DNA from: a virus
Strand: one strand, 5' to 3'
DNA: 12,901 nt
Virus record (IMG/VR): IMGVR_UViG_3300045988_120558
Location: 1 to 12,901 of that record
A program made the translations under genes and the position numbers. The notes below the pieces were generated by a model. It saw nothing but the letters and a program-made list of their open reading frames with translations, searched no databases and was not told the origin of the DNA. Position 1 is the stretch's first letter; the number at the start of each line of letters is the position of its first letter. This document shows positions 1 through 12,901 of this stretch, one piece after another.

Positions 1-117
1 AAACTTGGCAAGACAAACCTATGAATAAATTGTTAAGATTTCCCCAATCTGTTCATATTTCGTTCATATTTCGTTCATAATTGCAAAACTGGCATGATTC
101 TTGCTAGGTAACTATAA
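1..117. repeat. Left inverted terminal repeat (ITR) of a linear protein-primed genome
   Basis: Bases 1-117 are the reverse complement of 12785-12901, with 116/117 identical (mismatch at 84 C vs 12818 A). Homology stops abruptly at 118. The genome end starts 5'-AAA, the reiterated terminal base needed for sliding-back initiation as in phi29 (AAAGTA). Confidence 0.95.
51..79. repeat. 11-bp direct tandem repeat inside the left ITR (GTTCATATTTC x2 plus partial GTTCATA)
   Basis: Read directly: gttcatatttc (51-61), gttcatatttc (62-72), gttcata (73-79). The period is about one helical turn. It is mirrored in the right ITR at 12823-12851. Confidence 0.9.
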
Positions 118-123
118 CATTAA

Positions 124-156
124 ATTGTCTGACAATATAGCATAAAGTCTGACAAT
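124..156. promoter_or_regulatory. Two candidate operator sites sharing the core GTCTGACAAT, 20 bp apart, just upstream of the early promoter
   Basis: ATTGTC-T-GACAAT (124-136) is a perfect 6-1-6 palindrome. The second copy AAAGTC-T-GACAAT (144-156) is imperfect. The 10-bp core is repeated at 127-136 and 147-156, and the sites lie immediately 5' of the -35 at 164. Confidence 0.5.
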
Positions 157-163
157 TATTCTG

Positions 164-192
164 TTGACATCTTAGTTCATATGGACTATAAT
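164..192 (+). promoter_or_regulatory. Early promoter, perfect sigmaA/sigma70 consensus
   Basis: TTGACA (164-169), exactly 17 nt spacer, TATAAT (187-192). It lies just inside the left ITR and upstream of the first gene. Confidence 0.8.
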
Positions 193-238
193 AGACCTAA
201 CAAATAAATCAAGCACGGCCATAAGGCAGGAGGGTTAT

Positions 239-400
239 ATGTATACTCTTTATAAGGAGTATAATGGAGCAAGATACTTTGCTGATGCATATGATGGAAC
301 TGATGATGTTGAGCTTATTAATGCAACAAACGATAAAGAAGCTATTGAGTTATTTAAAGAGATTATGAGATTAAAAGAGGATGAACAGGAGGAACAGTAA
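239..400 (+). CDS. Small, highly acidic early protein (53 aa), unknown function; not in the ORF track
   Basis: ATG 239 is preceded by AGGAGGG (228-234). My translation is MYTLYKEYNGARYFADAYDGTDDVELINATNDKEAIELFKEIMRLKEDEQEEQ. Stop TAA 398-400 abuts the next ATG at 401. I count 15 D/E against 6 K/R. Confidence 0.6.
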   Translation: MYTLYKEYNGARYFADAYDGTDDVELINATNDKEAIELFKEIMRLKEDEQEEQ

Positions 401-775
401 ATGAAATCAAAATACGAAAAACTCAAATATACCAATACTGGGGTAAAAGCCCCGGTAGTGACTCTCATGAAATCCAGTACAGAACTTTGTAGGTCAAACA
501 TGATAGAATTAAACTATCCAGAAGTAACAATCATCATAAGGAGAATTGCACGAAAAACAATGTACAATCGTTCAATGTCTCTAATAAATATTAAAGCAGA
601 TCATTTTATTGCCTCATTTTATGTTCATGATACTATTAACGATGCAAGAGTTGTATGTGAGAATATTTATTTGATCATTAAAAAACCAGAATTAGATTTT
701 CGCATAACAACTATGGAATACAATAGCATTTATGAGTATATGAAGGGAGTAGTATACAATGCCAAAGAATCCTAA
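401..775 (+). CDS. Hypothetical early protein (124 aa); by position possibly an SSB or dsDNA-binding replication accessory protein
   Basis: ORF-track ORF. AGGAGGA (387-393) lies 7 nt upstream of ATG 401. It overlaps the next gene by 17 nt. I recognise no motif. Confidence 0.6.
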   Translation: MKSKYEKLKYTNTGVKAPVVTLMKSSTELCRSNMIELNYPEVTIIIRRIARKTMYNRSMSLINIKADHFIASFYVHDTINDARVVCENIYLIIKKPELDFRITTMEYNSIYEYMKGVVYNAKES

Positions 776-1379
776 AATCCCAACCACGTCAAAGGGTTTG
801 AACATCAACCCGAACATGCTTACTACGCTTGAGGCTCTACAGCTCCGCAGGCAGCTTGCAAAACGTCTGAATCAGCGTATGCGCAGATTAAAAGCAAAAG
901 GTTTTGATTCAGAGGTTGGAGGAGCGTACGCAGACTACCAGGACTTGCTTGTAAGATTTTTCCCGGGTAGGTCATCTATTCCGGAAAATCTGGAAAATGA
1001 AAAATACAAGGGATTACCGCGAACTCAGGTGAAAGCCATCCAAAAGATATTGAAAAAAAAGAGCAGCACTGTTCAGGGCTGGCATGAGATCATAGATAAA
1101 CGCCAAAAAACCCTTAGCACAGAATATGGGATCAACTTTAAATCTAAAGAGGAAATGAAGTTATTTTTTAAGTCTGAAGTATGGTCATGGATGCAACGAT
1201 TTTATGACAGTAAACAGACAATGAGAATAATCAGTCATAAACTGGATGATTCTACGGTTTCTGAGATCATAAAAGATCTGGAAAAATTCCGGGAGAGAAC
1301 TGATCCAGATGCAGCTGATACGATAGCAAAACAACTAGGTTTTTCTGGCGAAGCAGAAGCTTTGAAATATAGACCATAG
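759..1379 (+). CDS. Candidate terminal protein (206 aa)
   Basis: It sits immediately upstream of the protein-primed DNA polymerase, the phi29 gene3-gene2 synteny. The N-terminus is strongly basic and helical (LQLRRQLAKRLNQRMRRLKAKG). SD GGGAG (745-749) precedes ATG 759. The assignment rests on position and composition only. Confidence 0.5.
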   Translation: MPKNPKIPTTSKGLNINPNMLTTLEALQLRRQLAKRLNQRMRRLKAKGFDSEVGGAYADYQDLLVRFFPGRSSIPENLENEKYKGLPRTQVKAIQKILKKKSSTVQGWHEIIDKRQKTLSTEYGINFKSKEEMKLFFKSEVWSWMQRFYDSKQTMRIISHKLDDSTVSEIIKDLEKFRERTDPDAADTIAKQLGFSGEAEALKYRP

Positions 1380-1394
1380 CAAGGGGGGTAAAGT

Positions 1395-3518
1395 ATGGTA
1401 GTCGCAGGATATCCAGTTATTTATTTTAAAAACTATGATTATATGCGACTATTCAATGGTGATTTTATCCGGAGATCCAATGCAGGTCATTATCTAGGTG
1501 TCTATGAAAAAATAATAACTGTTGATACAGAAACTTTTGTCTATCTTAACAAAAACATTGGCTTTGTCACGGATTGGACAATCACGATAGAGGATGATTG
1601 TTGTATTTACGGCAACCATGTTTCTGATCTGATTGATACGATCGACAGGATTTGCACAACTTTACATGCTGACGATAGCCACCTTGTAAGATTTTTCATT
1701 CATAACTTTCCATATGACTATGTTTTTCTTCGTAACCATTTTTTCCAAAAGTGGGGGAATCCTGATAAATCACTGGCTGCTAAGACACATAAATATATTT
1801 TTATGAAATGGACAGGACAAGGCATTGAGTTCCGTGATAGTCTCATCTTGACACAAAGATCACTTGAGAAGCTTTGTAAAGACATGGGAACAACTGAAAA
1901 AGCTGTCGGAACATGGGACTATAAGAAATTCCGAACGCCAGCAAGTCCACGTACAGCAAAAGAAATAGCCTATGTCTGTACGGATACAATCAGTCTATGC
2001 AAGGCATTACGCAAATACATAGATCAGCGAGGATTTAACGTGGCGAACTGTCCGCTGACCAATACGGGCTTTATCCGGACGAACGCCCGCAGGAGAGCAA
2101 GAAAAGACAAGAAATGGAAAAAGCAATTTGAGAAAATGGCTCTGACGTTGGAGCAATACGATCAAATGCTTGACTGCTATCATGGTGGCTATACGCATGC
2201 TAATAGGTATTATGTGAATCAATTAATAAAAGGGACTGTTGAATGTTATGATTTTGCAAGCTCATACATAGCCTGGATGTGCTATTGTAAGTTTCCTATG
2301 TCGAATTTTTGTTATACAAATAATATAACATTAAAAGACATTATGGATTTGAAAGATGATTATGCTTTTTCTGGTTATATCAGATTAAAGAATCTGAGAC
2401 TGAAAAAAGACTGTCCTATGCCCCCGCTGTCTTTTTCAAAAGCAAAAGTTTGTGTTTTTCCAGAAGCCAAAAGCAAAAAAGAACAGTTTCATGATAATCT
2501 GGATAACGGAAAGATCGTCAACGCTGATCTTGTCATCTATCCATTTACGGATCCAGATTTAGAAGTAATCCTGTCAAGCTATGATTATGAATGGGCTGAC
2601 GTGTCAAAAGTAATGAGAGCTACAAAAGACTACTTGCCGGAGTGGTTTACTGATTACTTGATGGAATTGTTTTTTAAAAAATGCACCCTTAAATGTTTGG
2701 ACGAAGCAAACTACATGATATCAAAGGGGGAGCTAAATGGCATGTACGGCATGACGGTTCAGAGAATCATTCAAATCTTATGTACAGAGCTTATGGAGTC
2801 AGGAGAGTGGGAAGCAAAAGAACCAGAGGACAGGGAAAAAGAGCTTGAAAAGTTCTATCGGAACAAGAACAACTTCATGCCCTACCAGTGGGGGGTATGG
2901 ATCACAGCGTATGCACAAGCTTATCTGTTCCAGCTGGGTTTCTGCTGCCGGAGGTGGTTATATTCAGACACAGATTCAGTAAAGGGAACAGACTGGGATC
3001 ATGATAAACTGGATGAGTTTAATCAGTCAATCGTTGAAATGTCACAAAAAAGAAACATTGGAGTAGTTGATTATAATGGAAAAACTTTCCGGTTGGGAAT
3101 TGCTGAGTTTGACGGGATCTATTCTGAGTTTATAACAATGGGAAGCAAGCGTTATTGCTACCGATTGAAAAAGGATGCATCCTTGCATCTGACGGTCGCA
3201 GGAGTTCCAAAAGAGGGTATTTACTGTTTGAATGACGATATAACAAATTTTCGAAAAGGGTTTATTTTCAAAAATGATTTGACATTCCGCAGGAACTACC
3301 GCAGAGCGAATGATTGGCAGGATCCAAAATGGAAGATGAAAACAGAGTATCTTTTCCATGACGGAATCAATGAAATGAATATTGATGGATGCAAGATTGA
3401 ATATGGTTGTGCCATCCGGTTAACAGATACAGAATATGAATTAGATCATACAATCCCATACGATAAAGAAACAGGATTACCCTTGCCGTTTGAAATAGAA
3501 GATACCGTGTACGGATAA
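1395..3518 (+). CDS. Family B DNA polymerase, protein-primed (phi29 gp2-like), 707 aa
   Basis: Motifs read from the translation: ExoI ITVDTETF (D44/E46), ExoII HNFPYDYVFL, ExoIII YVCTDTISL. Pol motif A is YDFASSYIAWM (Dx2SLYP type), motif B KGELNGMYGM (Kx3NSxYG), motif C YSDTDS (residues 523-528, nt 2961-2978), and KxY is GSKRYCY. SD AAGGGGGG (1381-1388). Confidence 0.95.
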   Translation: MVVAGYPVIYFKNYDYMRLFNGDFIRRSNAGHYLGVYEKIITVDTETFVYLNKNIGFVTDWTITIEDDCCIYGNHVSDLIDTIDRICTTLHADDSHLVRFFIHNFPYDYVFLRNHFFQKWGNPDKSLAAKTHKYIFMKWTGQGIEFRDSLILTQRSLEKLCKDMGTTEKAVGTWDYKKFRTPASPRTAKEIAYVCTDTISLCKALRKYIDQRGFNVANCPLTNTGFIRTNARRRARKDKKWKKQFEKMALTLEQYDQMLDCYHGGYTHANRYYVNQLIKGTVECYDFASSYIAWMCYCKFPMSNFCYTNNITLKDIMDLKDDYAFSGYIRLKNLRLKKDCPMPPLSFSKAKVCVFPEAKSKKEQFHDNLDNGKIVNADLVIYPFTDPDLEVILSSYDYEWADVSKVMRATKDYLPEWFTDYLMELFFKKCTLKCLDEANYMISKGELNGMYGMTVQRIIQILCTELMESGEWEAKEPEDREKELEKFYRNKNNFMPYQWGVWITAYAQAYLFQLGFCCRRWLYSDTDSVKGTDWDHDKLDEFNQSIVEMSQKRNIGVVDYNGKTFRLGIAEFDGIYSEFITMGSKRYCYRLKKDASLHLTVAGVPKEGIYCLNDDITNFRKGFIFKNDLTFRRNYRRANDWQDPKWKMKTEYLFHDGINEMNIDGCKIEYGCAIRLTDTEYELDHTIPYDKETGLPLPFEIEDTVYG

Positions 3519-3520
3519 AA

Positions 3521-3529
3521 TGTTATAAA
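3521..3529 (+). promoter_or_regulatory. Possible extended -10 promoter (TGtTATAAA) in the gap after the polymerase gene
   Basis: TGTTATAAA at 3521-3529 (TGn plus 5/6 of the -10). There is no convincing -35. It lies in the 68-nt intergenic gap upstream of the small-ORF cluster. Confidence 0.25.
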
Positions 3530-3586
3530 TCTGTAATAGTTTTTTAACATAAATAAGTTACAATATAGACAGGAGGTGAAAAAACC

Positions 3587-3700
3587 ATGAAAAAATTCTG
3601 GAAAGAAAATAAAGAAGATATTGAAACGCTTTTCTGGACTTGTGTTACTTTTGCTTGCATGTTTGCAAGCTGTCAAGTATGGTTACTGTTAGTGGATTAA
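3587..3700 (+). CDS. 37-aa single-pass membrane peptide; not in the ORF track
   Basis: AGGAGGTG (3571-3578) precedes ATG 3587. The product is MKKFWKENKEDIETLFWTCVTFACMFASCQVWLLLVD: a charged N-terminus followed by a ~22-residue hydrophobic stretch. Stop TAA 3698-3700. Confidence 0.55.
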   Translation: MKKFWKENKEDIETLFWTCVTFACMFASCQVWLLLVD

Positions 3701-3733
3701 AGGGGGGGTAAATCATGAAAAAAAGTTGTTGAA

Positions 3734-3937
3734 GTGGCTGAGATTAAAAAGAAAATTGAAAAATTAATAAACTCAGCAAATGAAGATTTTAAGAAAGGTT
3801 TAAATAATTTATATGACTTGAAAATCTATGTGGCAAAATTAATGTTTTCCTATTTAGAAGATCTAATATGTGAACCAGAAACATGGGAAGAAGATATGTT
3901 TCGTCTGAATGAGTGGATGGATTCATTAAGACATTAA
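3734..3937 (+). CDS. Hypothetical 67-aa helical protein; start unresolved (GTG 3734, or ATG 3715 if the A7 run is one base too long)
   Basis: The ORF-track ORF begins at GTG and has no SD of its own. The strong SD AGGGGGGG (3701-3708) serves ATG 3715, which is in another frame and stops after 5 codons. See the finding at 3701-3740. Confidence 0.55.
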   Translation: MAEIKKKIEKLINSANEDFKKGLNNLYDLKIYVAKLMFSYLEDLICEPETWEEDMFRLNEWMDSLRH

Positions 3938-3950
3938 GGAGGTGAGAAAA

Positions 3951-4091
3951 TTGATTGACATGTCGGAGATCTATGAAACATTGCGAACAAGCAGCCTGCG
4001 AAGAGTAACTTACGAAGATGATGAAATTAGTATTGTAGCTTATAAGGTTGGAAAAATCATTAGAATTGATGTAAGGGAGGTAATAAGATGA
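3951..4091 (+). CDS. Hypothetical 46-aa protein; not in the ORF track
   Basis: AAGGAGGTG (3936-3944) lies 6 nt before TTG 3951, with an alternative ATG at 3960. The product is (M)IDMSEIYETLRTSSLRRVTYEDDEISIVAYKVGKIIRIDVREVIR. Stop TGA 4089-4091 overlaps the next ATG (ATGA). Confidence 0.5.
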   Translation: MIDMSEIYETLRTSSLRRVTYEDDEISIVAYKVGKIIRIDVREVIR

Positions 4092-4258
4092 ATACAATAT
4101 ACAAATTGTATGATGCGTTACTTACTATAAAAGAGTATTGTGTATCAAACAATACATGCAAGGATTGTCCACTCATTGATAGTGATGATTGTTGCATTTT
4201 TACAACAGATAGAGCACCATGTGATTGGAAACCGGTTAAGCCAACAATAATTAAATAA
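4088..4258 (+). CDS. Cysteine-rich 56-aa protein (possible metal-binding); not in the ORF track
   Basis: AAGGGAGG (4073-4080) lies 7 nt before ATG 4088. The product is MNTIYKLYDALLTIKEYCVSNNTCKDCPLIDSDDCCIFTTDRAPCDWKPVKPTIIK. Six Cys are spaced C-x5-C-x2-C-x7-CC-x8-C. Confidence 0.55.
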   Translation: MNTIYKLYDALLTIKEYCVSNNTCKDCPLIDSDDCCIFTTDRAPCDWKPVKPTIIK

Positions 4259-4273
4259 AGGAGATAAACTAAT

Positions 4274-4573
4274 ATGTTAAAATCAAACGTAAAAATTACT
4301 TGCAAACCTTATTCTGGTACCTCAAATACAAAAGCTTTTATTGATTTGACAGTGGATGACACACTGGTAATTAAAGGGCTGACGTTGGTTGAGGGAAAAA
4401 AAGGTCTTTTCCTGTCATTCCCGAGCAAAAAGGGAAAAGACAAAAAATACTATAATTCAATATATTCACTCGATAAAGAATGGAAACAGCTTTTGCAGGA
4501 TGCCTGCATCAAAAAATACAACGAGTGCAATCAGACTTCACAGTCTGCATCCTCCGGAGGTGGATTTCAATAA
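4274..4573 (+). CDS. spoVG: SpoVG-family nucleic-acid-binding protein (99 aa)
   Basis: By eye it aligns along its length with B. subtilis SpoVG. AFIDLTVDDTLVIKGLTLVEGKKGLFLSFPSKK...LLQDACIKKY matches [33 protein letters not shown]...IQDAVLTEY, and the length is the same (~97-99 aa). SD AAGGAG (4258-4263). Stop TAA overlaps the ATPase ATG (TAATG). Confidence 0.8.
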   Translation: MLKSNVKITCKPYSGTSNTKAFIDLTVDDTLVIKGLTLVEGKKGLFLSFPSKKGKDKKYYNSIYSLDKEWKQLLQDACIKKYNECNQTSQSASSGGGFQ

Positions 4574-5619
4574 TGAACATCTACGATAGAAATGGTTGGC
4601 TGGACTTTCCAAAGATCATCAAGATTGCCGATAAAAATAAGATTAACTTCATTTTCATCATTGGTGCACGTAGAACCGGAAAAACATATGGAATTTTCCA
4701 ACACTTCGTTAATGATGTTTTTTCCAAAAATGAGAAGATCATCTACATGAGACGTACAAAAGAGCAGCTAAAAAAAGTTTTTATTCCGGAGTTTGATCCA
4801 TGGCTGGACATAAACAAAGATATGAACAGGTTTTTTCATTTTGAAAAGCCCAGAGGTGAATACGGACGTATTAAGATTGTAGAGCAGGTTGAGGAAGAGG
4901 AAGTATATAGAGGTGAGGCATTCTGTCTCACCTCAATGCATAACAACCGTGGATTCTCTGGATCTGATTTCTCTGAGGGGTTTTATGATGAGTTCATCCC
5001 GGAGAAGATCGCTAAGTCAATCAGTGGGGAGGATGATGCTTTTCTGAATGCTGTTGAGACCATATCGGCAAACAGAGAATTGCAAGGAAAGAAGCCATTC
5101 CGCTGGTGGCTTGCTTCCAACTCAAACACATTAGATAATGCAATTGTGCAAGCTTTTGGATTGCTGCCAATATTGGAACGAATGAAAAAGAACAAGCAGG
5201 AGTTTTCCATGCTAAAAGAGAGAGGAATCATCTTGCTTTTGATTAACGATTCCCCGATTTCAGAAAAGAAGAAAGATACTGCGTTGTATCGTGCTTTATC
5301 ATGCGATACTGACTTTGCAAAGATGGCTTTATCGAATGAATTTGCATATGATGATGTCTCGGCTGTCAGATCAGAGGACATTAGGCAATACAAGCTAATT
5401 TGTGTGATCGGAAAAGTGGCCATTTACGAACACAAGTCAAAAGCACACTTGTATGTTTCTGATCATATTTCTGGCACTTGTAAAAATGTTTTTAAAGACA
5501 GCCGGCATGGAAAAGATCAGTTTAGATGCTTTTATAGCTGGATTGACAGCTATCGTCTGACAAATCGAATCAGTTACCAGAATATTTCTGTAAAATTTTA
5601 TATTGACAAACTATTTTGA
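4573..5619 (+). CDS. DNA encapsidation (packaging) ATPase, phi29 gp16-like, 348 aa
   Basis: Walker A is FIIGARRTGKTYG (phi29 VIGARGIGKSYA). IIYMRRTKEQL matches phi29 FIYVRRYKPEL. Walker B is GFYDEFIPEK (phi29 IVFDEFIREK), and LASNSN matches CLSNAV. I place the start at ATG 4573 (SD GGAGGTGG 4556-4563) rather than the track's 4480, which would overlap the SpoVG-like gene by 94 nt. Confidence 0.9.
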   Translation: MNIYDRNGWLDFPKIIKIADKNKINFIFIIGARRTGKTYGIFQHFVNDVFSKNEKIIYMRRTKEQLKKVFIPEFDPWLDINKDMNRFFHFEKPRGEYGRIKIVEQVEEEEVYRGEAFCLTSMHNNRGFSGSDFSEGFYDEFIPEKIAKSISGEDDAFLNAVETISANRELQGKKPFRWWLASNSNTLDNAIVQAFGLLPILERMKKNKQEFSMLKERGIILLLINDSPISEKKKDTALYRALSCDTDFAKMALSNEFAYDDVSAVRSEDIRQYKLICVIGKVAIYEHKSKAHLYVSDHISGTCKNVFKDSRHGKDQFRCFYSWIDSYRLTNRISYQNISVKFYIDKLF

Positions 5620-5631
5620 AACAAGTATATT
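5603..5631 (+). promoter_or_regulatory. Late (or RNA-gene) promoter, near-consensus sigmaA type
   Basis: TTGACA (5603-5608), exactly 17 nt spacer, TATATT (5626-5631). It overlaps the ATPase stop codon. The predicted start (~5637-5640) coincides with the first base of the long stem below. A GTCTGACAA copy sits upstream at 5554-5562. Confidence 0.65.
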
Positions 5632-5636
5632 AGAGC

Positions 5637-5716
5637 TAGGTCAGAGTGGCTACATCGACCGCCGGAAGCGGATTGCCGTGGGATGATTACCCAGAAGCTC
5701 TGACCTATTTAATTTT
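5637..5716 (+). ncRNA. Candidate structured RNA (three-way junction): pRNA-like small RNA or structured leader/attenuator of the late operon
   Basis: A closing helix pairs 5637-5646 (taggtcagag) with 5698-5707 (ctctgaccta), 10 Watson-Crick bp. Hairpin A is ccgc(5659-5662)/gcgg(5668-5671) with loop cggaa. Hairpin B is tggg(5679-5682)/ccca(5690-5693) with a 7-nt loop atgatta. The U-rich tail tatttaatttta follows. The element is locally much more GC-rich than its surroundings and contains no ORF. Confidence 0.4.
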
Positions 5717-5742
5717 ACTTCCGGCAGAAAAGGAGAGATAAA

Positions 5743-6078: not shown

Positions 6079-6093
6079 GGAGGTGTAAATAAT

Positions 6094-7290
6094 ATGGCGA
6101 ACAGTTTAGTTGTGCAGGACGCCTATCCTATCATTAATGAATTGTACAAAATGGCTACTGGTCGTGAAAATCTTAAAGCAATAGACACAAGCTCTTTTGT
6201 TGCAGTTGGTGAAACCATGTTGCGGACAGGTGTAGAGCCAACACTGAAAGCACTCAGTCAGTGGTGTGGAAAAACGTATTTTGAAATGGAAAAATACAGA
6301 TCTGGTGTGTTCCGCTCAATCATTGAGGATAATGAACGATGGGGAGCTATCATACGTGAGATCATCACATTGCCAAACGATGCGGAGGCATCGCAGGATT
6401 GGAATACAGATCTGAACGAAAACCAGCTTGCCAACGGTCAGTCTGTAGACATGTACAAGATTAATGCTCCAAAAGTGGTGGAGTTGAAATTCTACGGAAG
6501 CAAGGTTTTACAGTCTCATCTTACACGTTTTCGGGATCAGCTGGCACTTGCTTTTTCCAATGAAGCAGAGTTTCTGATGTTTGTAAGTAGCTATATGACA
6601 GCTTATTACAATGACATTGAATCCAGAAATGAAGCAAAACGCAGACTGACGGTGCTTAACTTCATGGCAGGCATTTCCTCCATTGGAACAAATGAAGTGG
6701 ATCTGGTAAAAGCTTACAATACAGAGTATGGAACAGAACTCACACGTAAGCAGCTTTTAAGTCCTGAACATCATAAAGATTTCATGGCTTTTGTAGTATC
6801 AAGAGTTAAGAAAGATTCAAAGAAGATGCAGGACAGAACCACAAAGTATCATATGAATCTGACTGGAAAGGACATCTTGCGATTCACAAGACCAGAGAAT
6901 CAGAAGTTGCTTATGTACACTGATTTTTGGATTGACAGCGAAACGCAGGTACTTCCGGAGGTATTTAATGATAAATATTTGAAAATTGGTGACATGGAGC
7001 TTGTAAACGGCTGGCAGGAGTTCGACAGCCCGGCTATCAATATCACACCGAACATCATTGATGCTGACGGAGTTTCAAAGACAGCCACTACAGCTGTAAG
7101 CCTGCCATATGTACTCGGTTTGCTTTACGATCGTAGAGCTATGGGCGTAAATAATCAATGGATGTACTCAGCGACTACACCATTCAATGCAGCTGGTGGC
7201 TACTACAACATCTATGACCATTACCGTTTTAATGCATGGAATAATTTTACGCACAATGCAATTCTTTACGTTCTGGGGGAGGGTGTATAA
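6094..7290 (+). CDS. Major capsid protein (398 aa)
   Basis: This is the largest head-region ORF. It carries a very strong SD, AAGGAGGTG, and follows the scaffold-like gene. Size and position match phi29-like gp8-type capsid proteins. I cannot verify any specific motif by eye. Confidence 0.65.
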   Translation: MANSLVVQDAYPIINELYKMATGRENLKAIDTSSFVAVGETMLRTGVEPTLKALSQWCGKTYFEMEKYRSGVFRSIIEDNERWGAIIREIITLPNDAEASQDWNTDLNENQLANGQSVDMYKINAPKVVELKFYGSKVLQSHLTRFRDQLALAFSNEAEFLMFVSSYMTAYYNDIESRNEAKRRLTVLNFMAGISSIGTNEVDLVKAYNTEYGTELTRKQLLSPEHHKDFMAFVVSRVKKDSKKMQDRTTKYHMNLTGKDILRFTRPENQKLLMYTDFWIDSETQVLPEVFNDKYLKIGDMELVNGWQEFDSPAINITPNIIDADGVSKTATTAVSLPYVLGLLYDRRAMGVNNQWMYSATTPFNAAGGYYNIYDHYRFNAWNNFTHNAILYVLGEGV

Positions 7291-7601
7291 TGATTTATTT
7301 TGACGTAACAGTTTCTGAACCTACTATAATTCCGTTAGATGATACAGTAGGCATAAAAAGGATTGTGATTTTAAATAATGGGGATACTAACTCTGCTACC
7401 GGCTTAATGTTAACTGATAATAGTCTTGTTTTATTGGCAAAAACAGAGCTTGTTGATTTTACTTTTCCCGAAACCCCGTACGGATATCCTGCCCCATCAT
7501 GTTTCTTTATTTCTGTTATTGGTAATAGTACAGCTCTTGTTATGATAGAAACAAGCCCATTTGTAAATGTCAACTATTTTGAAAAAAGGGAGGTTAAATA
7601 G
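7290..7601 (+). CDS. Hypothetical structural protein (103 aa; occupies the head-fibre/decoration position)
   Basis: The start is coupled (TAATG) to the capsid gene, with SD GGGGGAGGG upstream. The composition looks beta-rich. I recognise no motif. Confidence 0.5.
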   Translation: MIYFDVTVSEPTIIPLDDTVGIKRIVILNNGDTNSATGLMLTDNSLVLLAKTELVDFTFPETPYGYPAPSCFFISVIGNSTALVMIETSPFVNVNYFEKREVK

Positions 7602-7606: not shown

Positions 7607-7828
7607 ATGGATACTTTTCTAACTGTTCTGGGAAACTATGCTTTTCCGATCGTATGCTGTTGTGTTATGGCCTACTTTGTAAAATACATGTACGATCAGA
7701 CCAATCAGAGAGTTGATAAACTCAACGAAGAACATAAAAACGAAGTTGATACACTTTCTGATGTTATCAAAAACAACACACTTGCTATTGAAAAAATGAA
7801 CTCGTTAATTGAACACTTAGAAAAATAG
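7607..7828 (+). CDS. Holin, BhlA/UviB-like (73 aa)
   Basis: An N-terminal transmembrane segment (FLTVLGNYAFPIVCCCVMAYFV) is followed by a charged coiled-coil tail (DKLNEEHKNEVDTL...IEKMNSLIEHLEK). This is the same architecture, with local matches (NEV, IEK), as SPbeta BhlA. It sits directly upstream of the endolysin. Confidence 0.7.
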   Translation: MDTFLTVLGNYAFPIVCCCVMAYFVKYMYDQTNQRVDKLNEEHKNEVDTLSDVIKNNTLAIEKMNSLIEHLEK

Positions 7829-7838: not shown

Positions 7839-8489
7839 ATGACAGCGAACGAACTTGTTGAAAATGCAAAGGAATTATTTGGAGTTAGATATGTGTGGGG
7901 TGGTTCAACCCCCACACAGGGACTTGATTGTTCCGGATTGCTTTATTGGATACAAAAGATGGCAGGATCAGAAGTTGGTAGATTGACTGCATCCAGTTAT
8001 TCCAAAATTGGAACAAAGATTCCAATTGGGCAGCAAAAAGTAGGTGATTTTCTATTTTTTGGAACTCCAGTTACTCACTGCGCCATTTTTATTGGCAATG
8101 GCTATATGATTGAAAGCAGGGGAGGCAGAAAAAACACACCCTACAACCCTGGTATTGGGGTGGTCAAAAGCCTTGTCACTCGTAGGTCTGACTTATCCTG
8201 CATCCGCAGAGTATGGGATGAAAAAAGCCCATCTTATGAAATAGGTAGAACCTATACTACTGTCGTAGATCACTTGCATGTACGCTATTCAGTATGGGGG
8301 CAGATCAAAGAGTATGCACAGTTAACACGGGACGGAATGAAACATGCCTATCCTGATGGATGCTTGAAAAAAGGAACTGCGGTCACGATAAAAGATATCA
8401 AAAAGGATGAGACCGGAGCAACGTGGGTACGGATTCCATCTGGCTGGATATGTGCAATTACAGCAAAAGGTGAGGTATATGTAAAATGA
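7839..8489 (+). CDS. Endolysin: NlpC/P60 (C40) endopeptidase with a C-terminal SH3b-like wall-binding domain (216 aa)
   Basis: The N-terminal signature is YVWGGSTPTQGLDCSGLLYW (catalytic Cys31), followed by GDFLFFG...THCAIFIGNGYMIES (His80). The C-terminal ~80 aa (GTAVTIKDIKKDETGATWVRIPSGWI) look SH3b-like. Confidence 0.9.
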   Translation: MTANELVENAKELFGVRYVWGGSTPTQGLDCSGLLYWIQKMAGSEVGRLTASSYSKIGTKIPIGQQKVGDFLFFGTPVTHCAIFIGNGYMIESRGGRKNTPYNPGIGVVKSLVTRRSDLSCIRRVWDEKSPSYEIGRTYTTVVDHLHVRYSVWGQIKEYAQLTRDGMKHAYPDGCLKKGTAVTIKDIKKDETGATWVRIPSGWICAITAKGEVYVK

Positions 8490-9829
8490 CAGATATTATT
8501 TTATTTCATTTTTCCAAACGAAAAAACAGTACCAAAAGACCAACAGGACAGGGGACAACCGTCCCCTGTCTTTTAAAATCAAACACTACTTTTCAGAATC
8601 CAGTGTTTAAATTAAAATTATCATTAGATAATGCATTGCAATACAACTATTTACAATGGGCCGACCATTACTATTTTATCAATTCGACGGTGTCATTAAA
8701 TAATGACATGGTTGAGATCTCAGCGAGTGAGGATATGTTAGCTACCTACCGGACAGAGATCAGCAACTATACATGCTTTATTGAGCGTTCTGCTAAGCAG
8801 AATACGCTTGCAAATGATTCCATGTATATCCCTACAAATGAATGGGTAAGTCAGCCCACGATCGTAGGGCAGCCGATAAATACATTTGTGAATGGATATG
8901 CTAGAAACTATCTGCTGCGGACTATTTCAGTAGAGGGGATAAGCACTTATTATGTCACAGGAAGCCAATTAGATGATCTAATGGAATTTATGTACACTTA
9001 TGGATCCATCCCGGATGTGATTGAGTCAGCACTTACACGTTTGCTTTTTAATCCGTTTCAATACATTGTTGACTTGAAATGGCTGCCATTCCGATTAAGC
9101 GTATTCCTTAATATTGCCGATAATATCAAACTTGGCTACTGGGACAGCAATGTAACTGCTGCATTAATTAATGATGCAACATGCACTTTTTCCTACGATT
9201 TAAGCCTTGGTAATCCCTTATATGCTGATAGTGATTTTAGATTTTACAATCCTGCTTTTTCAAAGTATAGTGTGAAGCTTCCATTTGTAGGGGTTATTCC
9301 TGTAAATCCAACAAAGACACATAAGGGTCAGTTAAAAGCCACTTATAACTTTGATGCTGTTTCTGGCATGGCTGACGTTTGGCTTACTTCCGGATCAGAT
9401 GAATATGCACACTTTCAATGTCAGCTTGCCGTCCCAATACAAATTGGATATGCTACAACAAACATTGGCCAGCTTACGACAAGCTTGATAGATACAGCCA
9501 CAAGTGCTGTCACAATGAATCCAATTAAGGCAACCACAAGCATTGTAGATGCATTTCAAAGTGTTACAGCCCCAGAGCCCAACATGGTAGGTACAGTTGG
9601 CAATATTTCATCAATACTCAATAACATGGATGCAAACAGTATCTGCTATGCCTGCACAAGCATAGATCCAGATGGCACAAGTGAGGGTTATATAGATGGT
9701 ACTGTCCGCAGTATTTCTGCACTGAGTGGTTTTGTAAAATGCAGAAATGCATCTATACAGATTGCAGGATTCGAGGGAGATCAAGAACAGGTGAACAGCT
9801 ACCTAAATAATGGATTTTATTTTGAATAA
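8486..9829 (+). CDS. Tail knob / major tail protein (phi29 gp9-like), 447 aa
   Basis: It occupies the gp9 position immediately upstream of the connector. The N-terminal pattern (NPVFKLKL...NYLQWADHYYFINSTVSLNNDMVEISASEDMLATYRTEI) resembles the conserved gp9 N-domain (SYIMFQN...WFYAFVTELEFKN...FEIDVLQTW). The start overlaps the endolysin stop (ATGA). Confidence 0.6.
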   Translation: MTDIILFHFSKRKNSTKRPTGQGTTVPCLLKSNTTFQNPVFKLKLSLDNALQYNYLQWADHYYFINSTVSLNNDMVEISASEDMLATYRTEISNYTCFIERSAKQNTLANDSMYIPTNEWVSQPTIVGQPINTFVNGYARNYLLRTISVEGISTYYVTGSQLDDLMEFMYTYGSIPDVIESALTRLLFNPFQYIVDLKWLPFRLSVFLNIADNIKLGYWDSNVTAALINDATCTFSYDLSLGNPLYADSDFRFYNPAFSKYSVKLPFVGVIPVNPTKTHKGQLKATYNFDAVSGMADVWLTSGSDEYAHFQCQLAVPIQIGYATTNIGQLTTSLIDTATSAVTMNPIKATTSIVDAFQSVTAPEPNMVGTVGNISSILNNMDANSICYACTSIDPDGTSEGYIDGTVRSISALSGFVKCRNASIQIAGFEGDQEQVNSYLNNGFYFE

Positions 9830-9845
9830 AAGGAGGAAAGAAAAC

Positions 9846-10766
9846 ATGTGGACACCGGTTAATTTTGACAAGATCAACATCTGCACAAATTATTTCCAAC
9901 CATCCGGAATCAAAGTCAACAGCTTATATACTGATACATTTGATAGGATGCTTTACGAGAGGGTATGTTCTATTCTTGACATCACATACAATGGAAGCAT
10001 TGATATTGACTATTTCAAATATTGCCTGCTTTTTGGGGGGTATATTTGCATCACAAAGACAGATCTTTATGGATTGATCGCACAGTATCCAACGCTGACA
10101 GGCTACAATATTTACTTTAAACCAACGACAGCAAGCATACATACGTATGCAAGCAACGCTGTAATTGACATGGAAGACATGGAGATCGGAAAAGACTGTT
10201 CTGTCATCTATCTCAGACCAACTTTCTGCGGAATTGGAGATATCATCGGGTTTTACAGCTACAAACTGGCACTTGTAGCATCTGCCCTTGATATGAATGT
10301 GTTTAATTCAAAACTTGCTTTTCTGATAGCTGCGAAAAACAAAGCAGCAGCTCAGACGCTGAAAAAAATTTATGAAAGTATACAGGCTGGTAACCCAGTT
10401 GAGGCTTTTGATGTATCCATAAAAACAGAAGACAGACAGGGAAGCAAGCAGGATGCGTGGGAGACATTCAACAAAGATTTGAAGCAGAACTTCATTACAC
10501 CGGAGCTGATTGAAGTGTTCGAGAAACTTTTGGATCAGTTCGACACGGAAGTAGGAATTCCCTCTGTCGGATCCGATAAAAAAGAACGTCTGAATGTGCT
10601 TGAGACAAGCAAAAATGATGCAGAATCAGTAACACGGCTTACGACATGGCTTGAGACAATGCAAGCAGGGGTTGACATGACAAACAGACTTTATCCGGAG
10701 ATGAATCTGTCAATCAAGATCAGAAGCTATGAAACTGCGGAGGTGAAAACTTATGGGACTTTATAA
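9846..10766 (+). CDS. Head-tail connector / upper collar (portal), phi29 gp10-like, 306 aa
   Basis: SDKKERLNVLETSKNDAESVT matches phi29 gp10 [27 protein letters not shown]...LALVASALDMNVFNSKLAFLIAAKN matches VVIYNND...[25 protein letters not shown]. The size matches (309 aa in phi29). I place the start at ATG 9846 (AGGAGG 9831-9836) rather than the track's 9810. Confidence 0.85.
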   Translation: MWTPVNFDKINICTNYFQPSGIKVNSLYTDTFDRMLYERVCSILDITYNGSIDIDYFKYCLLFGGYICITKTDLYGLIAQYPTLTGYNIYFKPTTASIHTYASNAVIDMEDMEIGKDCSVIYLRPTFCGIGDIIGFYSYKLALVASALDMNVFNSKLAFLIAAKNKAAAQTLKKIYESIQAGNPVEAFDVSIKTEDRQGSKQDAWETFNKDLKQNFITPELIEVFEKLLDQFDTEVGIPSVGSDKKERLNVLETSKNDAESVTRLTTWLETMQAGVDMTNRLYPEMNLSIKIRSYETAEVKTYGTL

Positions 10767-11442
10767 GATAACGATAGCAGGGCTTTACGAATGGAATAAT
10801 ACTCTGTTTGACAAGATGGAATTCCCAGAATCAGCAGACAAGCAGAATTTTATTGATTGCTTGCTTCTATCCTATGGAGATTGCGAACCACTTTATCCTG
10901 ACTGGGAGTTTATGCATGATAGTGCTATTCCTGCATGGAGTAGAAAATGGAAAAGTAGCATTGACAAGGTTTATAAAGTGTTAGACTTACTTAACTATGA
11001 ACCAATTGAAAACTATGACCGCTATGAAGAATGGACAGATAGCCCCGATCTGACACGGACAAGTCAAAGCTCCGGGCAGGATATAAACAGGGCAGAAGCA
11101 GGACAGGGAACCACTACGACCAACTCTGGGGCAGATACAGCTACCAATGAAGTAAGTGCTTTTAATGATGCAAGCTACAGCCCGAACGAAAAAACGACAA
11201 CGGAGTATGGTGGCAGTACAACAGTGCAAAGTTATGGAGAAAACAAAAATACGTTTGAATACGGAAAAGGTGAAACAAGCAGAGAGACAGGACAGAATAA
11301 GCACTCTGGGCGTATTCATGGCAACATTGGGGTTACTACCTCTCAGCAGATGATCCAGTCAGAGCTTGAGTTACGGATACAAAGCTTTATTGATTACTGT
11401 ACTGGGCTATTTGCACAGGATCTGCTTTTATTAATTTATTAA
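10753..11442 (+). CDS. Lower collar / head-tail adaptor candidate (229 aa)
   Basis: It follows the connector, as phi29 gp11 does. SD GGAGGTG (10739-10745). It has a central low-complexity S/T/G/N-rich segment and a conserved-looking C-terminus (HGNIGVTTSQQMIQSELELR). The call is mainly positional. Confidence 0.5.
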   Translation: MGLYKITIAGLYEWNNTLFDKMEFPESADKQNFIDCLLLSYGDCEPLYPDWEFMHDSAIPAWSRKWKSSIDKVYKVLDLLNYEPIENYDRYEEWTDSPDLTRTSQSSGQDINRAEAGQGTTTTNSGADTATNEVSAFNDASYSPNEKTTTEYGGSTTVQSYGENKNTFEYGKGETSRETGQNKHSGRIHGNIGVTTSQQMIQSELELRIQSFIDYCTGLFAQDLLLLIY

Positions 11443-11455
11443 GGAGGAATAAATT

Positions 11456-12712
11456 ATGTTTTTCAGATACCCACATAGTGGATCACACGAAATGAACTTA
11501 GACTGGCTGCTTAAAGTTGGCAAACAGGCTGACAAAGACCACGAAGAGTGGACACACATTAAAGACACTGCTCAGACAATGATTGATGATGCAATCCAGA
11601 AAAGCCTGGATGATGGAGAGATCGGAAAAGTAGTAAATGATGCCACTACAAAAGTAATCACAGAACAGATTGACCCATTAAAAGAACAGGTTGGAACAAA
11701 TAGAACTGAGATCGCAAAGTTACAAAAAAGAGAAGGACTTTTTGACCATTCTGGGAAAACCATCATCATCGGAGATAGCTACACCGTTGGTTATACACCA
11801 GATGGGAATATAACACCGTGGACTACTAACTTTATCAAGTACACAGGGCTTGAGGATGTCACAATCTCCGCAAATGGGGGGGCTTCTTTCTCAACAGCTA
11901 ATAATTCATTCCTTATGCTTTTAAATGATGTACCCCCTTCTAATGAGGTCAAACAGATCCTTGTTGTAGGTGGATTTAATGAGTTTGGAAGCTACTCAGA
12001 AATTGAAAATGCAATCAATGCTTTTATGGGAGTGGCAGAAGTGAGATTTCCGAATGCAAAAGTATTTTCCGCTATGGTAGCATGGTCAGTAGATCGGACG
12101 GATGACCCAACTGTACAGAATAGGCTCAAGACTGCAAAATCCGTTTATAACAGTCAGCGTAAAAATTGGAGGTATTTGACAGGCTCAGACTATATTTTGC
12201 ATGCCGACGGCTTTCTGGGTTCTGATGGCTTCCATCCAAACACAACAGGACAGGAGAGACTTGCAAGCTATCTTGCTACCGCTGTTGAAACGGGATCATG
12301 CAGTCCATCATTTTATGAAGTTATCGCCAACTTTGAAGCTGGCGACTTTACAGCTACACTAGGTTCAAGCTGGACTTTTATAAGCTCATACAATGAGAAC
12401 ACAAGCACTCTGATCTGGAGCAACTATGTTTGTTTCCCAAACAGCGGAACACTTACATGTGATGGCACTGAATACCGTTTGGGGCGGATTTTCTCAACTT
12501 CTTTTATTGGAGATCACAATGGCTACACATGCTATCCAACAACCGTGATCGTTAAGTCTGTCAGCGATTTCTTTCACATCCCTGCACAGCTTAATTTCCG
12601 AGGCCGACATATTTATTTAAGCTTATACGATATTTCAGATGATAAGCACAATTACCGAACTTTGACAGAGGTTACACAGGTGCAGATTCATAGAGGTTCT
12701 ATTACCATGTAA
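11456..12712 (+). CDS. Tail appendage / receptor-binding protein with a central SGNH (GDSL) esterase domain, 418 aa
   Basis: SGNH blocks are readable: block I IIIGDSYTVGY (Ser108), block II SANGGASF, block III VVGGFNEF, block V SDGFHPNTTG (D-x-x-H). The N-terminal ~95 aa are coiled-coil-like, and the C-terminal ~130 aa form a separate beta-looking domain. It is the last gene, in the phi29 gp12 position. SD AAGGAGGA. Confidence 0.75.
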   Translation: MFFRYPHSGSHEMNLDWLLKVGKQADKDHEEWTHIKDTAQTMIDDAIQKSLDDGEIGKVVNDATTKVITEQIDPLKEQVGTNRTEIAKLQKREGLFDHSGKTIIIGDSYTVGYTPDGNITPWTTNFIKYTGLEDVTISANGGASFSTANNSFLMLLNDVPPSNEVKQILVVGGFNEFGSYSEIENAINAFMGVAEVRFPNAKVFSAMVAWSVDRTDDPTVQNRLKTAKSVYNSQRKNWRYLTGSDYILHADGFLGSDGFHPNTTGQERLASYLATAVETGSCSPSFYEVIANFEAGDFTATLGSSWTFISSYNENTSTLIWSNYVCFPNSGTLTCDGTEYRLGRIFSTSFIGDHNGYTCYPTTVIVKSVSDFFHIPAQLNFRGRHIYLSLYDISDDKHNYRTLTEVTQVQIHRGSITM

Positions 12713-12725
12713 ATATAAAATATGA

Positions 12726-12754
12726 TAGCCCAGCGGTATGCTGGGCTATTTTTT
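12726..12754 (+). terminator. Rho-independent terminator of the late operon
   Basis: A 9-bp stem pairs tagcccagc (12726-12734) with gctgggcta (12740-12748). The loop is ggtat, followed by a T6 run (12749-12754). It begins 14 nt after the last stop codon. Confidence 0.85.
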
Positions 12755-12784
12755 ATACTTCTACCATGAGCTTATTCAACAGCT

Positions 12785-12901
12785 TTATAGTTACCTAGCA
12801 AGAATCATGCCAGTTTTACAATTATGAACGAAATATGAACGAAATATGAACAGATTGGGGAAATCTTAACAATTTATTCATAGGTTTGTCTTGCCAAGTT
12901 T
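12785..12901. repeat. Right inverted terminal repeat
   Basis: It is the reverse complement of 1-117 (116/117). It contains the mirrored 11-bp tandem repeat at 12823-12851. Confidence 0.95.

Follow-up and report, generated by a model that had tools for sequence, protein, structure and literature searches.

Phage phi29 (Salasmaviridae, 19,282 bp) has an inverted terminal repeat (ITR) of 6 bp, divergent early and late transcription, a packaging ATPase encoded by the last late gene and a 174-nt packaging RNA (pRNA) at its left end. The 2,115 phi29-related genomes surveyed recently span 7.9-34.6 kb (Evseev et al. 2024, PMC11476376). The name phi29-like protein-primed podophages is used here informally for Salasmaviridae, Guelinviridae, Madridviridae and Rountreeviridae together with relatives that have no classification. 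Among the small isolates, the Amedibacillus phages AD70P2 and AD70P3 (12.2-12.3 kb; AD70P3, 12,228 bp; GC 26.7%) are filed under Guelinviridae in the NCBI taxonomy, a placement questioned by the same survey (PMC11476376). Nearly all of their coding lies on one strand, with three small ORFs on the other strand at one end, and no ITR as long as 30 nt is present in the AD70P3 record as deposited. The phages Astrid, astrithr and assan of Salmonella (Astrithrvirus; 11.6-11.7 kb; Astrid, 11,713 bp) have an 83-bp terminal repeat, and most of their genes point rightward, apart from a small leftward block that occupies the right end.

We compared these systems with the window, that is, the whole 12,901-bp stretch analysed here (GC 38.6%), in which 19 ORFs of the plus strand span 94% of the length. 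The window very probably represents, from end to end, the linear dsDNA genome of a protein-primed, phi29-like and so far uncultured podophage of the human gut, a species-level variant of an abundant and already catalogued lineage. Its features are the following:

1-117, no strand: left ITR, 5' end AAACTTGGCAAG; related contigs stop at the identical base
51-82, no strand: three tandem 11-bp units (GTTCATATTTC) within the left ITR, mirrored at 12820-12851
164-192, plus: promoter-like site P1, TTGACA-17-TATAAT, 12/12 consensus match; presumed early promoter
239-400, plus: 53-aa early ORF, no function assigned
401-775, plus: 124-aa ORF, conserved in close relatives, no function assigned
759-1379, plus: candidate terminal protein, 206 aa, predicted all-helical, directly upstream of PolB
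1395-3518, plus: protein-primed family-B DNA polymerase (PolB), 707 aa; PF03175, phrog_1907
3587-3700, plus: 37-aa ORF, hydrophobic in one segment, ribosome-binding site good; uncertain gene
3734-4258, plus: three small ORFs (67, 49 and 56 aa); phrog_9264 for the 56-aa ORF; no function assigned
4274-4573, plus: SpoVG-family protein, 99 aa; PF04026 at 3.4e-17; nucleic-acid-binding fold
4573-5619, plus: gp16-type DNA packaging ATPase, 348 aa; start ATG overlaps the preceding stop codon
5603-5631, plus: promoter-like site P2, TTGACA-17-TATATT, 11/12; kept in all close relatives
5637-5707, plus: conserved three-way-junction RNA, 71 nt, directly 3' of P2
5743-6078, plus: 111-aa protein, immediately upstream of the capsid gene
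6094-7290, plus: phi29-type major capsid protein, 398 aa; Phi29_MCP PF25622, 1e-17
7290-7601, plus: 103-aa protein, close relatives only, no function assigned
7607-7828, plus: 73-aa holin candidate, one N-terminal transmembrane segment; phrog_4898, 9e-4
7839-8489, plus: NlpC/P60 peptidoglycan hydrolase, 216 aa, match 1.6e-16; C-terminal half without assignment
8486-9829, plus: gp9-like tail knob protein, 447 aa; AF2 model and Foldseek
9810-10766, plus: gp10-like connector (upper collar) protein, 318 aa; PF05352, 3e-14
10753-11442, plus: gp11-like lower collar protein, 229 aa; hhalign 99.3%, E 2.6e-20
11456-12712, plus: SGNH/GDSL-type hydrolase-domain protein, 418 aa; phrog_31573, 4.8e-25
12724-12750, plus: intrinsic terminator hairpin, 12 pairs and a T run, readable on both strands
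12785-12901, no strand: right ITR, below the ~225-250 bp typical of most relatives

Close relatives were readily retrieved. GenBank MT836115.1 (UNVERIFIED Bacteriophage sp., human faeces, Mexico, 12,876 bp) is 90.6% identical across 95% of the window, with a capsid 95% identical, and relative L005 is 90.1% identical across 98.4%. In IMG/VR, at least 55 contigs (11-13.8 kb) show 82-90% nucleotide identity and encode a PolB that is 93-97% identical. Taken together, MT836115 and the IMG/VR contigs match 82-98% of the window at 82-90.6% nucleotide identity. They share its gene order and also have the terminal 12 nt, the P2 site and the RNA element in common with it; most of them differ by a longer promoter-bearing ITR and by one or two leftward genes at the right end. 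The species threshold of 95% was reached by none of the retrieved relatives; the window is a species-level variant, with an intergenomic similarity of about 89% to the nearest of them. Protein clusters at 90% identity number in the hundreds, one having 1,023 members, and across hundreds of assemblies the longest contig per cluster does not exceed 13.5 kb, which speaks against membership of a larger replicon. A PolB search of 185,579 reference genomes found no relative, and the sole match in a genome collection was a 12.6-kb phage contig binned in an Odoribacter MAG, which is unreliable as a host clue.

The completeness of the genome was judged from its ends. The 117-bp ITRs, which the initial annotation had placed flush with both ends, were recovered there as arms that are 99% complementary with a single mismatch. 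Base 1 is the exact terminus of 15 related contigs from other, independent and public, assemblies, among which the terminal 12 nt AAACTTGGCAAG are invariant; L055, whose PolB is 68% identical to that of the window, begins with AAACTAGGCAAG. Since 15 independent contigs terminate at this base, the window ends are real genome ends, and the molecule is linear with ITRs at its true termini. The view of a complete, small phi29-like genome was thus borne out by the ITRs, the shared ends and the gene kit described below, protein priming being presumed. The ITRs are the presumed replication origins for such priming, and the 11-bp units, present in two or three copies in relatives, are possible sites for an origin-binding protein.

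All ORFs that matched a family lie on the plus strand, and the six longest minus-strand ORFs gave no PHROG match. The claim that all genes share one strand therefore holds for the supported genes of the window; it fails as a trait of the lineage, since a leftward gene of 84-92 aa is present at the right end in 42 of 56 relatives. Most relatives have one or two such genes there, and the leftward gene follows a duplicate of the left promoter, which is contained in an ITR extended to about 225-250 bp; the P1 site of most relatives falls inside the ITR and so is present at both ends. Strict one-strand coding is a loss particular to this variant. Loss of a right-end module, made up of the small leftward gene and the inner ITR with its promoter and kept by most relatives, accounts for both the one-strand layout and the short ITR. 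In L055, the homologue of the 53-aa early ORF lies on the minus strand at the right end.

A defective or mis-assembled variant, in which a truncated or misjoined right end made the 117-bp ITR and the missing leftward gene artefactual, was weighed against this reading. Most relatives do have ITRs of about 225-250 bp and the right-end gene, and flush ends prove little in themselves, as graph assemblers end both ITR arms at one k-mer path. However, the arms differ at one base and so were not simply copied, and the outer end is the consensus terminus of 15 other contigs. Moreover, L035 has the same terminator-to-ITR junction, L049 is an intermediate form with an ITR of 176 bp and no leftward gene, and this gene is also missing from L007 and L045. 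We consider an artefact improbable, and a genuine complete genome with a reduced right end is retained.

The gene kit was then compared with that of phi29. PolB matched PF03175 and phrog_1907 (1.5e-50) and aligned to phi29 gp2 with 100% probability (hhalign, E 8e-61). Motifs Exo II/III, A, B, C and KxY were all aligned, as were insertions equivalent to TPR1/TPR2; the exonuclease and polymerase motifs and the insertions of a protein-primed PolB are thus all present. The ATPase matched PF05894 (1e-13). For the tail knob, the best nine Foldseek matches of the AF2 model were picovirus tail knobs, with 5FB4 at E 3e-10 and with phi29 gp9, C1 gp12 and the Andhra tail knob among them. The structural set of a phi29-like phage (gp16 ATPase, phi29-type capsid, gp10 connector, gp11 lower collar and gp9 tail knob) is therefore present, and these proteins and PolB are homologous to those of phi29. 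Of the full kit proposed initially, PolB, ATPase, capsid, gp9, gp10, gp11 and the NlpC/P60 protein were supported by profile, hhalign or Foldseek matches. Support was weaker for the holin (9e-4), whose family takes in an annotated transmembrane protein of Astrid, for the appendage, as the 418-aa protein had no homology to phi29 gp12 detectable by hhalign, and for the terminal protein, which is assigned by synteny and family. By hhalign, phi29 gp3, gp4, gp5, gp6, gp7, gp12, gp13, gp14 and gp15 had no counterpart in the window; this includes the comparisons of the 124-aa ORF (401-775) with gp4, gp5 and gp6 and of the 111-aa protein with gp7. By its position, the latter is a candidate scaffolding protein. 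The SpoVG-family gene, conserved in L055 and MT835901, was not in the initial gene list; the 67-aa ORF (3734-3937) is missing from MT836115.

ORF 759-1379 gave no Pfam or PDB match, no detectable similarity to phi29 gp3 (hhalign probability 0.3%) and an unusable AF2 model (pLDDT 52). Terminal proteins beyond Salasmaviridae are undetectable by sequence (PMC11476376). The ORF shares 27% identity with a 204-aa protein encoded at the syntenic position in AD70P3 (E 1e-5), and an iterated HMM search linked it to syntenic ORFs of HM2, Astrid, MT836155, MT836263 and MT836587, in a family with a conserved KxSTVxG motif and an invariant Y57. Its position and this conserved syntenic family make it a candidate terminal protein.

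As regards classification, no record of Salasmaviridae, Rountreeviridae or Madridviridae was found at E<=1e-5 in the PolB search, and no Salasmaviridae record was among the tblastn matches of PolB and capsid. Membership of Salasmaviridae was rejected on the lack of a tblastn match, the negative hhalign results for gp3-gp7 and the one-strand coding. ICTV delimits Guelinviridae by a shared proteome and by monophyly with the Clostridium perfringens phages. The window is linked to this family only through the Amedibacillus phages placed in it by NCBI, whose PolB is 30% identical; no C. perfringens phage was among the matches. AD70P2 and AD70P3 resemble the window in size and in order (candidate terminal protein, PolB, small ORFs, gp16 ATPase, promoter and three-way-junction RNA, small protein, capsid, tail knob, connector, lower collar, appendage), although their proteins are only 25-31% identical. 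Astrithrvirus likewise has a member of the candidate terminal protein family upstream of PolB and the ATPase right after PolB, ahead of the head genes, but differs by its Gram-negative host, a tail knob split in two proteins, a CHAP-domain lysin and a capsid 25% identical. The position of the packaging ATPase gene upstream of the head genes, correctly noted at first, belongs to a terminal protein-PolB-ATPase-head-tail order common to the window, AD70P3 and Astrid.

These comparisons bear on the proposal of a distinct, minimal and previously unrecognised lineage of protein-primed podoviruses, with size, one-strand transcription and ATPase-before-head order as its defining novelties. None of the ICTV-classified phages is close; among isolates, PolB matched best in HM2 and AD70P3, at only 30-31% identity. 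The 2024 survey places MT836115 in capsid cluster 12/terminase cluster 9 (Table S1; Evseev et al. 2024, PMC11476376) and treats cluster 12 merely as one table row and a map, with no further discussion (PMC11476376). Nevertheless, MT836115 (90.6%/95%), the IMG/VR contigs and the cluster 12 entry already contradict "unrecognised"; the described isolates, of 11.5-12.3 kb, have the same size and gene order, and most of the window's own relatives are not coded on one strand. By transitivity through MT836115, the window would itself fall in capsid cluster 12/terminase cluster 9, whose cluster-12 representative, Caudoviricetes sp. ctFJX15, has 12,830 bp and 38.7% GC (PMC11476376). The frame used initially, of genomes of 16-21 kb transcribed in both directions, is outdated, and a new lineage is very improbable. 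Close identity to a classified phage, named at the outset as evidence against novelty, was found halfway: the relatives are public and catalogued, yet they have no ICTV classification. A prophage fragment or linear plasmid-like replicon is scarcely credible: some phi29-related sequences are annotated as Enterococcus or Clostridium plasmids (PMC11476376), but the window has a full virion and lysis gene set and no integrase, partition or repressor match, the PolB search of the 185,579 reference genomes found no copy, and no contig exceeds about 13.8 kb. The reading of a catalogued gut phage is therefore kept; the lineage that holds the window is sequenced and catalogued, yet unclassified and uncultured.

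The two consensus-like promoters and the single terminal terminator of the initial annotation were found as pattern matches. From these patterns, the early and replication genes would be under P1 and those for head, lysis and tail under P2, all transcription running rightward and stopping at the single terminator. The candidate terminal protein and PolB, the latter by homology, would initiate replication at both ITR ends, and the conserved 5'-AAA, shared with phi29, may permit phi29-style sliding back. The gp16-type ATPase would drive DNA through the gp10 connector. The tail would consist of the collar (gp11), the knob (gp9) and an appendage of SGNH-esterase type, the 418-aa protein being presumed to act as both tail appendage and receptor-modifying esterase. 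Lysis would involve the one-transmembrane holin candidate and the NlpC/P60 hydrolase, which may act as endolysin, as tail lysin or in both roles.

We then looked at the RNA that follows P2. It comprises an outer helix of 11 bp, a 3-bp helix, an 8-nt internal loop on the 5' side (5651-5658) and two hairpins. One hairpin has the loop CGGAA (5663-5667), the other a loop of 7 nt (5683-5689), and directly after the RNA comes a U-rich tract (5708-5720). The fold is backed by strong covariation. In a pRNA three-way junction, the 5' and 3' ends pair as helix A; next comes the C-E arm, whose internal (CE) loop is on the 5' side, and then the D hairpin (PMC5066667). The 71-nt RNA has the same helix order. 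Further hallmarks of a pRNA are Watson-Crick pairing of the CE loop with the D loop, covarying from phage to phage, and its existence as a discrete small transcript that binds the prohead and that DNA packaging requires. With loops delimited by hand on predicted folds, the CE and D loops of eight lineages contain complementary runs of 3-8 nt with differing letters, one compensatory change (UA to CG) was seen, and the summed run length was matched by 1 of 20,000 shuffles. The RNA recurs in at least seven lineages. Counterparts in MT835901, MT835998, MT836155, MT836263 (and 80 relatives), MT836587, the isolate AD70P3 and, possibly, HM2, a Clostridium phage in which a separate hairpin and U run follow the candidate RNA, adjoin the packaging ATPase gene or sit where the head-gene block begins; the element was not detected in Astrithrvirus. 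The RNA had no match in Rfam, pRNA model included, and the RNA model built here (R2) did not match phi29 pRNA. Because known pRNAs are only about 12% identical in sequence (PMC5066667), such a similarity test is weak. We regard the RNA as a candidate packaging-RNA analogue or late-operon leader. That it is a miniature pRNA docking the gp16-type ATPase on the connector, by analogy with phi29, is a serious possibility which we hold at somewhat less than even.

As the lineage is already abundant in public databases, the window is ordinary as a genome: it adds, unsurprisingly, one species-level variant to an abundant, uncultured and unclassified group of human-gut phi29-like phages, and its use lies in taxonomy and in how ITR-proximal genes come and go at such ends. 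The RNA element matters more, as it bears on how gp16-type motors work without a pRNA. Three-way junctions of pRNA serve as scaffolds in RNA nanotechnology, and a natural 71-nt variant may be of practical interest. So far, phi29 and its Bacillus relatives are the only phages from which a pRNA is known (PMC5066667; PMC11476376). An RNA of pRNA topology, backed by covariation and adjacent to the ATPase gene, makes the question of pRNA-less motors directly testable, since many gut lineages and one or more isolates have it. If this RNA is a pRNA, a far smaller natural version would exist, with two culturable systems, and the pRNA, instead of being peculiar to the Bacillus relatives of phi29, would be ancestral to phi29-like phages and a general component of their packaging motor.

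The set of phi29-type genes reported in the initial annotation is present, with Pfam, hhalign and structure-model (AF2) matches for the core genes. The main coding features are as follows.

759-1379 (+), candidate terminal protein (TP), 206 aa, directly 5' of PolB
1395-3518 (+), PolB, aligned to phi29 gp2 with 100% probability
4274-4573 (+), SpoVG-family protein, 99 aa (PF04026, 3.4e-17)
7607-7828 (+), holin candidate, 73 aa, one transmembrane segment and a weak holin match
7839-8489 (+), NlpC/P60-domain protein, 216 aa (Pfam)
8486-9829 (+), tail knob, 447 aa (AF2 model and PDB structure matches)
10753-11442 (+), lower collar (gp11), 229 aa (hhalign 99.3%, E 2.6e-20)
11456-12712 (+), SGNH/GDSL-type hydrolase, 418 aa, last gene

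When PolB was compared with phi29 gp2, Exo II, Exo III, motifs A, B and C and KxY were conserved, Exo I could be read as VDTETF, and segments aligned to TPR1 and TPR2. The gp16-type ATPase, the phi29-type capsid and the gp10 connector each scored above Pfam cut-offs. Since single-sequence PDB searches with PolB, the tail knob, the lower collar and TP gave nothing useful, we used profiles and a structure model for structure-level assignments. The tail knob model had a mean pLDDT of 67 (about 90 in the first 100 residues), and its nine top PDB matches (best E 3e-10) were to the Andhra tail knob, phi29 gp9 and phage C1 gp12. All hhalign comparisons with phi29 gp4, gp5, gp6, gp7, gp8.5, gp12, gp13, gp14 and gp15 were negative, including that of the SGNH/GDSL protein with gp12. 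Esterases of this type are commonly used in phage tails and, together with the position of the gene, this leads us to infer that the protein is the appendage. The earlier gene list had the core set right and missed the SpoVG-family protein. SpoVG proteins are nucleic-acid binders; the gene lies directly upstream of the packaging ATPase gene and is kept in MT835901 and in L055, a more distant relative (PolB 68% identical). A tRNA search of the window found none.

The inverted terminal repeat (ITR) of 117 bp was found flush with both ends as first described, with arms at 1-117 and 12785-12901 that are 99% complementary and differ by a single base. An assembler may stop both arms at the same point, so flush ends by themselves are weak proof. 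We compared the ends of 55 IMG/VR relatives retrieved with PolB as the query. Among these, 15 contigs from other assemblies terminate at exactly base 1 of the window; all 15 start with AAACTTGGCAAG, and more internal positions are variable. Only L028 extends beyond base 1 among the contigs compared, by 10 bases at one end, and L055 begins AAACTAGGCAAG. The longest contig encoding the 206-aa protein, across hundreds of assemblies, is 13.5 kb, and a PolB scan of 185,579 reference genomes found no relative. Taken together, the shared termini, the contig sizes and the lack of a reference-genome relative indicate that the window is a complete linear replicon and no fragment of a larger molecule. 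Calling it a complete phi29-like genome is well founded. Its 5'-AAA terminus agrees with the 5'-AAAGTA of phi29 and is compatible with sliding-back initiation, a step taken from established phi29 knowledge. Inside the ITR, 11-bp tandem units (GTTCATATTTC; 51-82 and 12820-12851) are present in three copies in the window and two in many relatives, and could be where a protein binds the origin.

The two consensus promoters and the single terminal terminator were recovered by consensus scan as pattern matches.

164-192 (+), promoter-like site P1 (12/12)
5603-5631 (+), promoter-like site P2 (11/12)
12724-12750 (+), the only strong terminator hairpin

All ORFs with a protein-family match lie on the + strand, and the six longest minus-strand ORFs gave no PHROGs match. 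The window (GC 38.6%) is 94% covered by 19 + strand ORFs with plausible ribosome-binding sites. The statement that every gene is on one strand therefore holds for the window; it fails as a lineage trait, because 42 of 56 related contigs carry homologues of a leftward gene, always at the right end and on the minus strand. The inverted repeat ranges from about 55 to 600 bp among relatives; in most of them it is about 225-250 bp and includes the P1 promoter, and at their right end the P1 copy faces this leftward gene, which encodes 84-92 aa and is in some cases joined by another of 58 aa. Examples are listed below.

L001, 12405-12683 (-), leftward right-end gene
L005, 12565-12819 (-), leftward right-end gene
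L051, 12848-13123 and 13136-13312 (-), leftward right-end genes

An extra copy is present within the left terminal repeat of L042. The gene is not in the window: it is missing from 12751-12784, and the terminator runs directly into the 117-bp arm. As L035 has an identical junction, and L049 (176-bp ITR), L007 and L045 are intermediates likewise devoid of the leftward gene, the short arm is more likely a natural state than an error of assembly. One-strand coding is thus a derived loss of the right-end module. Mycoplasma phage P1, considered as a one-strand-coded comparison, proved not to be coded on one strand. Outside the close relatives, the window's first gene (239-400, +) has a single homologue, at the opposite end of L055 (13314-13550, -), which suggests that ITR-proximal genes move between both genome ends. 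In L046 the inverted repeat is at least 600 bp and a second, partial SGNH appendage gene is found at the left end (475-1272, -; other copy at 11846-13102, +), which reflects either a naturally long ITR or an artefact of assembly. In the alignment of relatives, the P2 -35 region of L033 is tandemly duplicated (about 5219-5260).

The 206-aa ORF received no Pfam, PHROG or PDB assignment and no similarity to phi29 gp3 was detected by hhalign. According to a 2024 survey, terminal proteins are unrecognisable by sequence outside Salasmaviridae (PMC11476376), so the absent gp3 match says little. The ORF is homologous to that at the same position in the Amedibacillus phage isolate AD70P3 (27% identity, E 1e-5), and an iterated HMM found homologues at this position in Clostridium phage HM2, Salmonella phage Astrid, MT836155, MT836263 and MT836587. 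On this synteny, it is the putative terminal protein. An invariant Tyr (Y57) and a KxSTVxG motif (S102-T104, G107) conserved across the family are candidate priming residues in phages of 11.7 to 17.5 kb. The AF2 model was all-helical with low confidence (pLDDT 52), and for that reason no fold search was made. Two database searches with this protein returned almost exclusively relatives at least 84% identical, because the phage is so abundant. Clustering at 90% identity places the protein in 373 database clusters, of which one contains 1,023 members.

The initial annotation proposed a distinct, minimal lineage. This kind of phage is already catalogued. The GenBank record MT836115, from human faeces in Mexico, shows 90.6% identity across 95% of the window, and the 55 IMG/VR contigs (11-13.8 kb) are mostly 82-90% identical across 82-98%, with four distant or partial (L055, L056, L057 and L058). 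Evseev et al. 2024 (PMC11476376) assembled a set of 2,115 phi29-related genomes, 7.9-34.6 kb in size, that fall into 30 capsid clusters and include many gut sequences of 12-14 kb; their Table S1 assigns MT836115 to cluster 12 by capsid and to cluster 9 by terminase, and the capsid cluster 12 representative has 12,830 bp and a GC content of 38.7%. The layout is also known in isolates. In AD70P3 (12,228 bp) the genes follow the same order and all but three small ORFs share one strand, and Astrid (11,713 bp), which has an 83-bp terminal repeat, likewise carries the ATPase gene directly after PolB and ahead of the head genes. Intergenomic similarity to the best retrieved relative is about 89% (0.984 x 90.1); with the customary cut-offs of 95% and 70%, the window is a separate species in an existing, unnamed genus-level group.

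The host search with PolB found no relative in reference genomes, and that with the lysin matched a single contig of phage size in an Odoribacter MAG. This contig, L059 (CABPYD010000046.1, 12,636 bp), is a whole phage genome of the group binned into the MAG 'uncultured Odoribacter sp.'. We did not accept Odoribacter as host on this match; a binning artefact is more likely. The holin-plus-lysin set, in which no spanin was found, suggests a Gram-positive host.

Immediately 3' of P2 begins a gap of 123 nt that separates the ATPase gene from the following ORF. This gap is more stably folded than shuffled sequence (z -2.8; z -2.65 for 5637-5722), and its core is more conserved than the flanks in 53 relatives. 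An alignment of 21 distinct sequences gave a three-way junction of 20 pairs with 99.3% of cells paired; both-side changes occurred in 7 pairs, which 0 of 500 shuffles matched, and slid controls gave at most 1 pair. The derived covariance model matched MT836263 (E 0.003) and MT835998 (E 0.004), at the start of their head-gene blocks. After these were added, both-side changes were seen in 16 of the 20 pairs, in an alignment fitted to the model and so favouring the structure. The syntenic gaps of MT836587 and AD70P3 fold into the same architecture, immediately 3' of an 11/12 promoter in AD70P3, and a simple three-way-junction search found the element, again with a CNGAA pentaloop, in the gaps of MT835901 and MT836155. 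It is present in 80 MT836263 relatives with compensatory stem changes and invariant loops. In HM2 the junction comes out as the best fold when 80 nt are folded and not for the 144-nt transcript, so this phage gives weaker support. In every lineage a promoter lies 5' and a U-rich tract 3'; HM2 has a separate hairpin and U run after the element. The three-way-junction RNA was located as follows.

Window, 5637-5707 (+), U-rich tail to 5720, supported by covariation
L002 (AD70P3), about 6290-6365 (-)
L066, 7917-8022 (-)
L064, 1043-1156 (+)
L067, 8537-8641 (-)
L063, about 6026-6095 (+)
L065, about 5611-5690 (+)
L003 (HM2), about 6110-6190 (+)

The phi29 packaging RNA (pRNA) is described in the order helix A (two ends), helix C, 5'-side CE loop, hairpin E, hairpin D, helix A (PMC5066667), and the predicted fold of its domain I has this order. 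The window RNA has an identical helix order, within 71 nt. In phi29 pRNA, the CE loop of one molecule pairs with the D loop of another. The corresponding loops (internal loop x D loop) are complementary in the window and read as follows.

Window, AUCG x UGAU
L055, ACCA x UGGU
MT836263 group, GGC x GCC
MT835998, GCUA x UAGC
MT836587 and AD70P3, UCC x GGA
MT835901, AAAAGGAA x UUCCUUUU
MT836155, GUCG x CGAC
HM2, GUAGU x ACUAC

Between L055 and the window there is one compensatory change at aligned positions. The summed complementary run length over eight lineages, with loops delimited by hand, was matched by 1 of 20,000 loop shuffles; AACC/GGUU of phi29 gave P 0.12 in this test. We counted the hand delimitation against a pRNA. 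We also counted against it that no Rfam family fits the whole window or 5590-5760 and that our covariance model does not match phi29, as well as the longer-transcript fold of HM2 and that the element was not found in Gram-negative Astrid-type genomes. On balance, a pRNA-like packaging RNA is a tentative candidate, to which we give somewhat below an even chance. A cis-acting leader or attenuator of the late operon also fits, the next gene starting about 35 nt downstream in most lineages. However, the element adjoins the head genes and not the ATPase gene in MT835998, and the ATPase gene and not the capsid gene in HM2. Since neither neighbour is constant, a trans-acting RNA fits slightly better than a leader. 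Another gap, 3519-3733, was ruled out as a pRNA gene, for its folding does not exceed that of shuffled sequence (z +0.6) and it contains a small ORF.

Within the CGGAA hairpin of the window, GCCGGAAG (5661-5668) is complementary to a stretch just 5' of the ORF 5743 ribosome-binding site, CUUCCGGC (5724-5731). This complementarity also occurs in L059, in L064 and throughout the window group, and was dropped as a general feature since the MT836263 group does not keep it; it could be a lineage-specific pseudoknot or translational switch.

Altogether, the claim of a distinct minimal lineage brings no new knowledge, as the window joins an already catalogued kind of phage. The part worth specialist attention is the conserved pRNA-like RNA, which is absent from Rfam and is a candidate mini-pRNA or late-operon leader.
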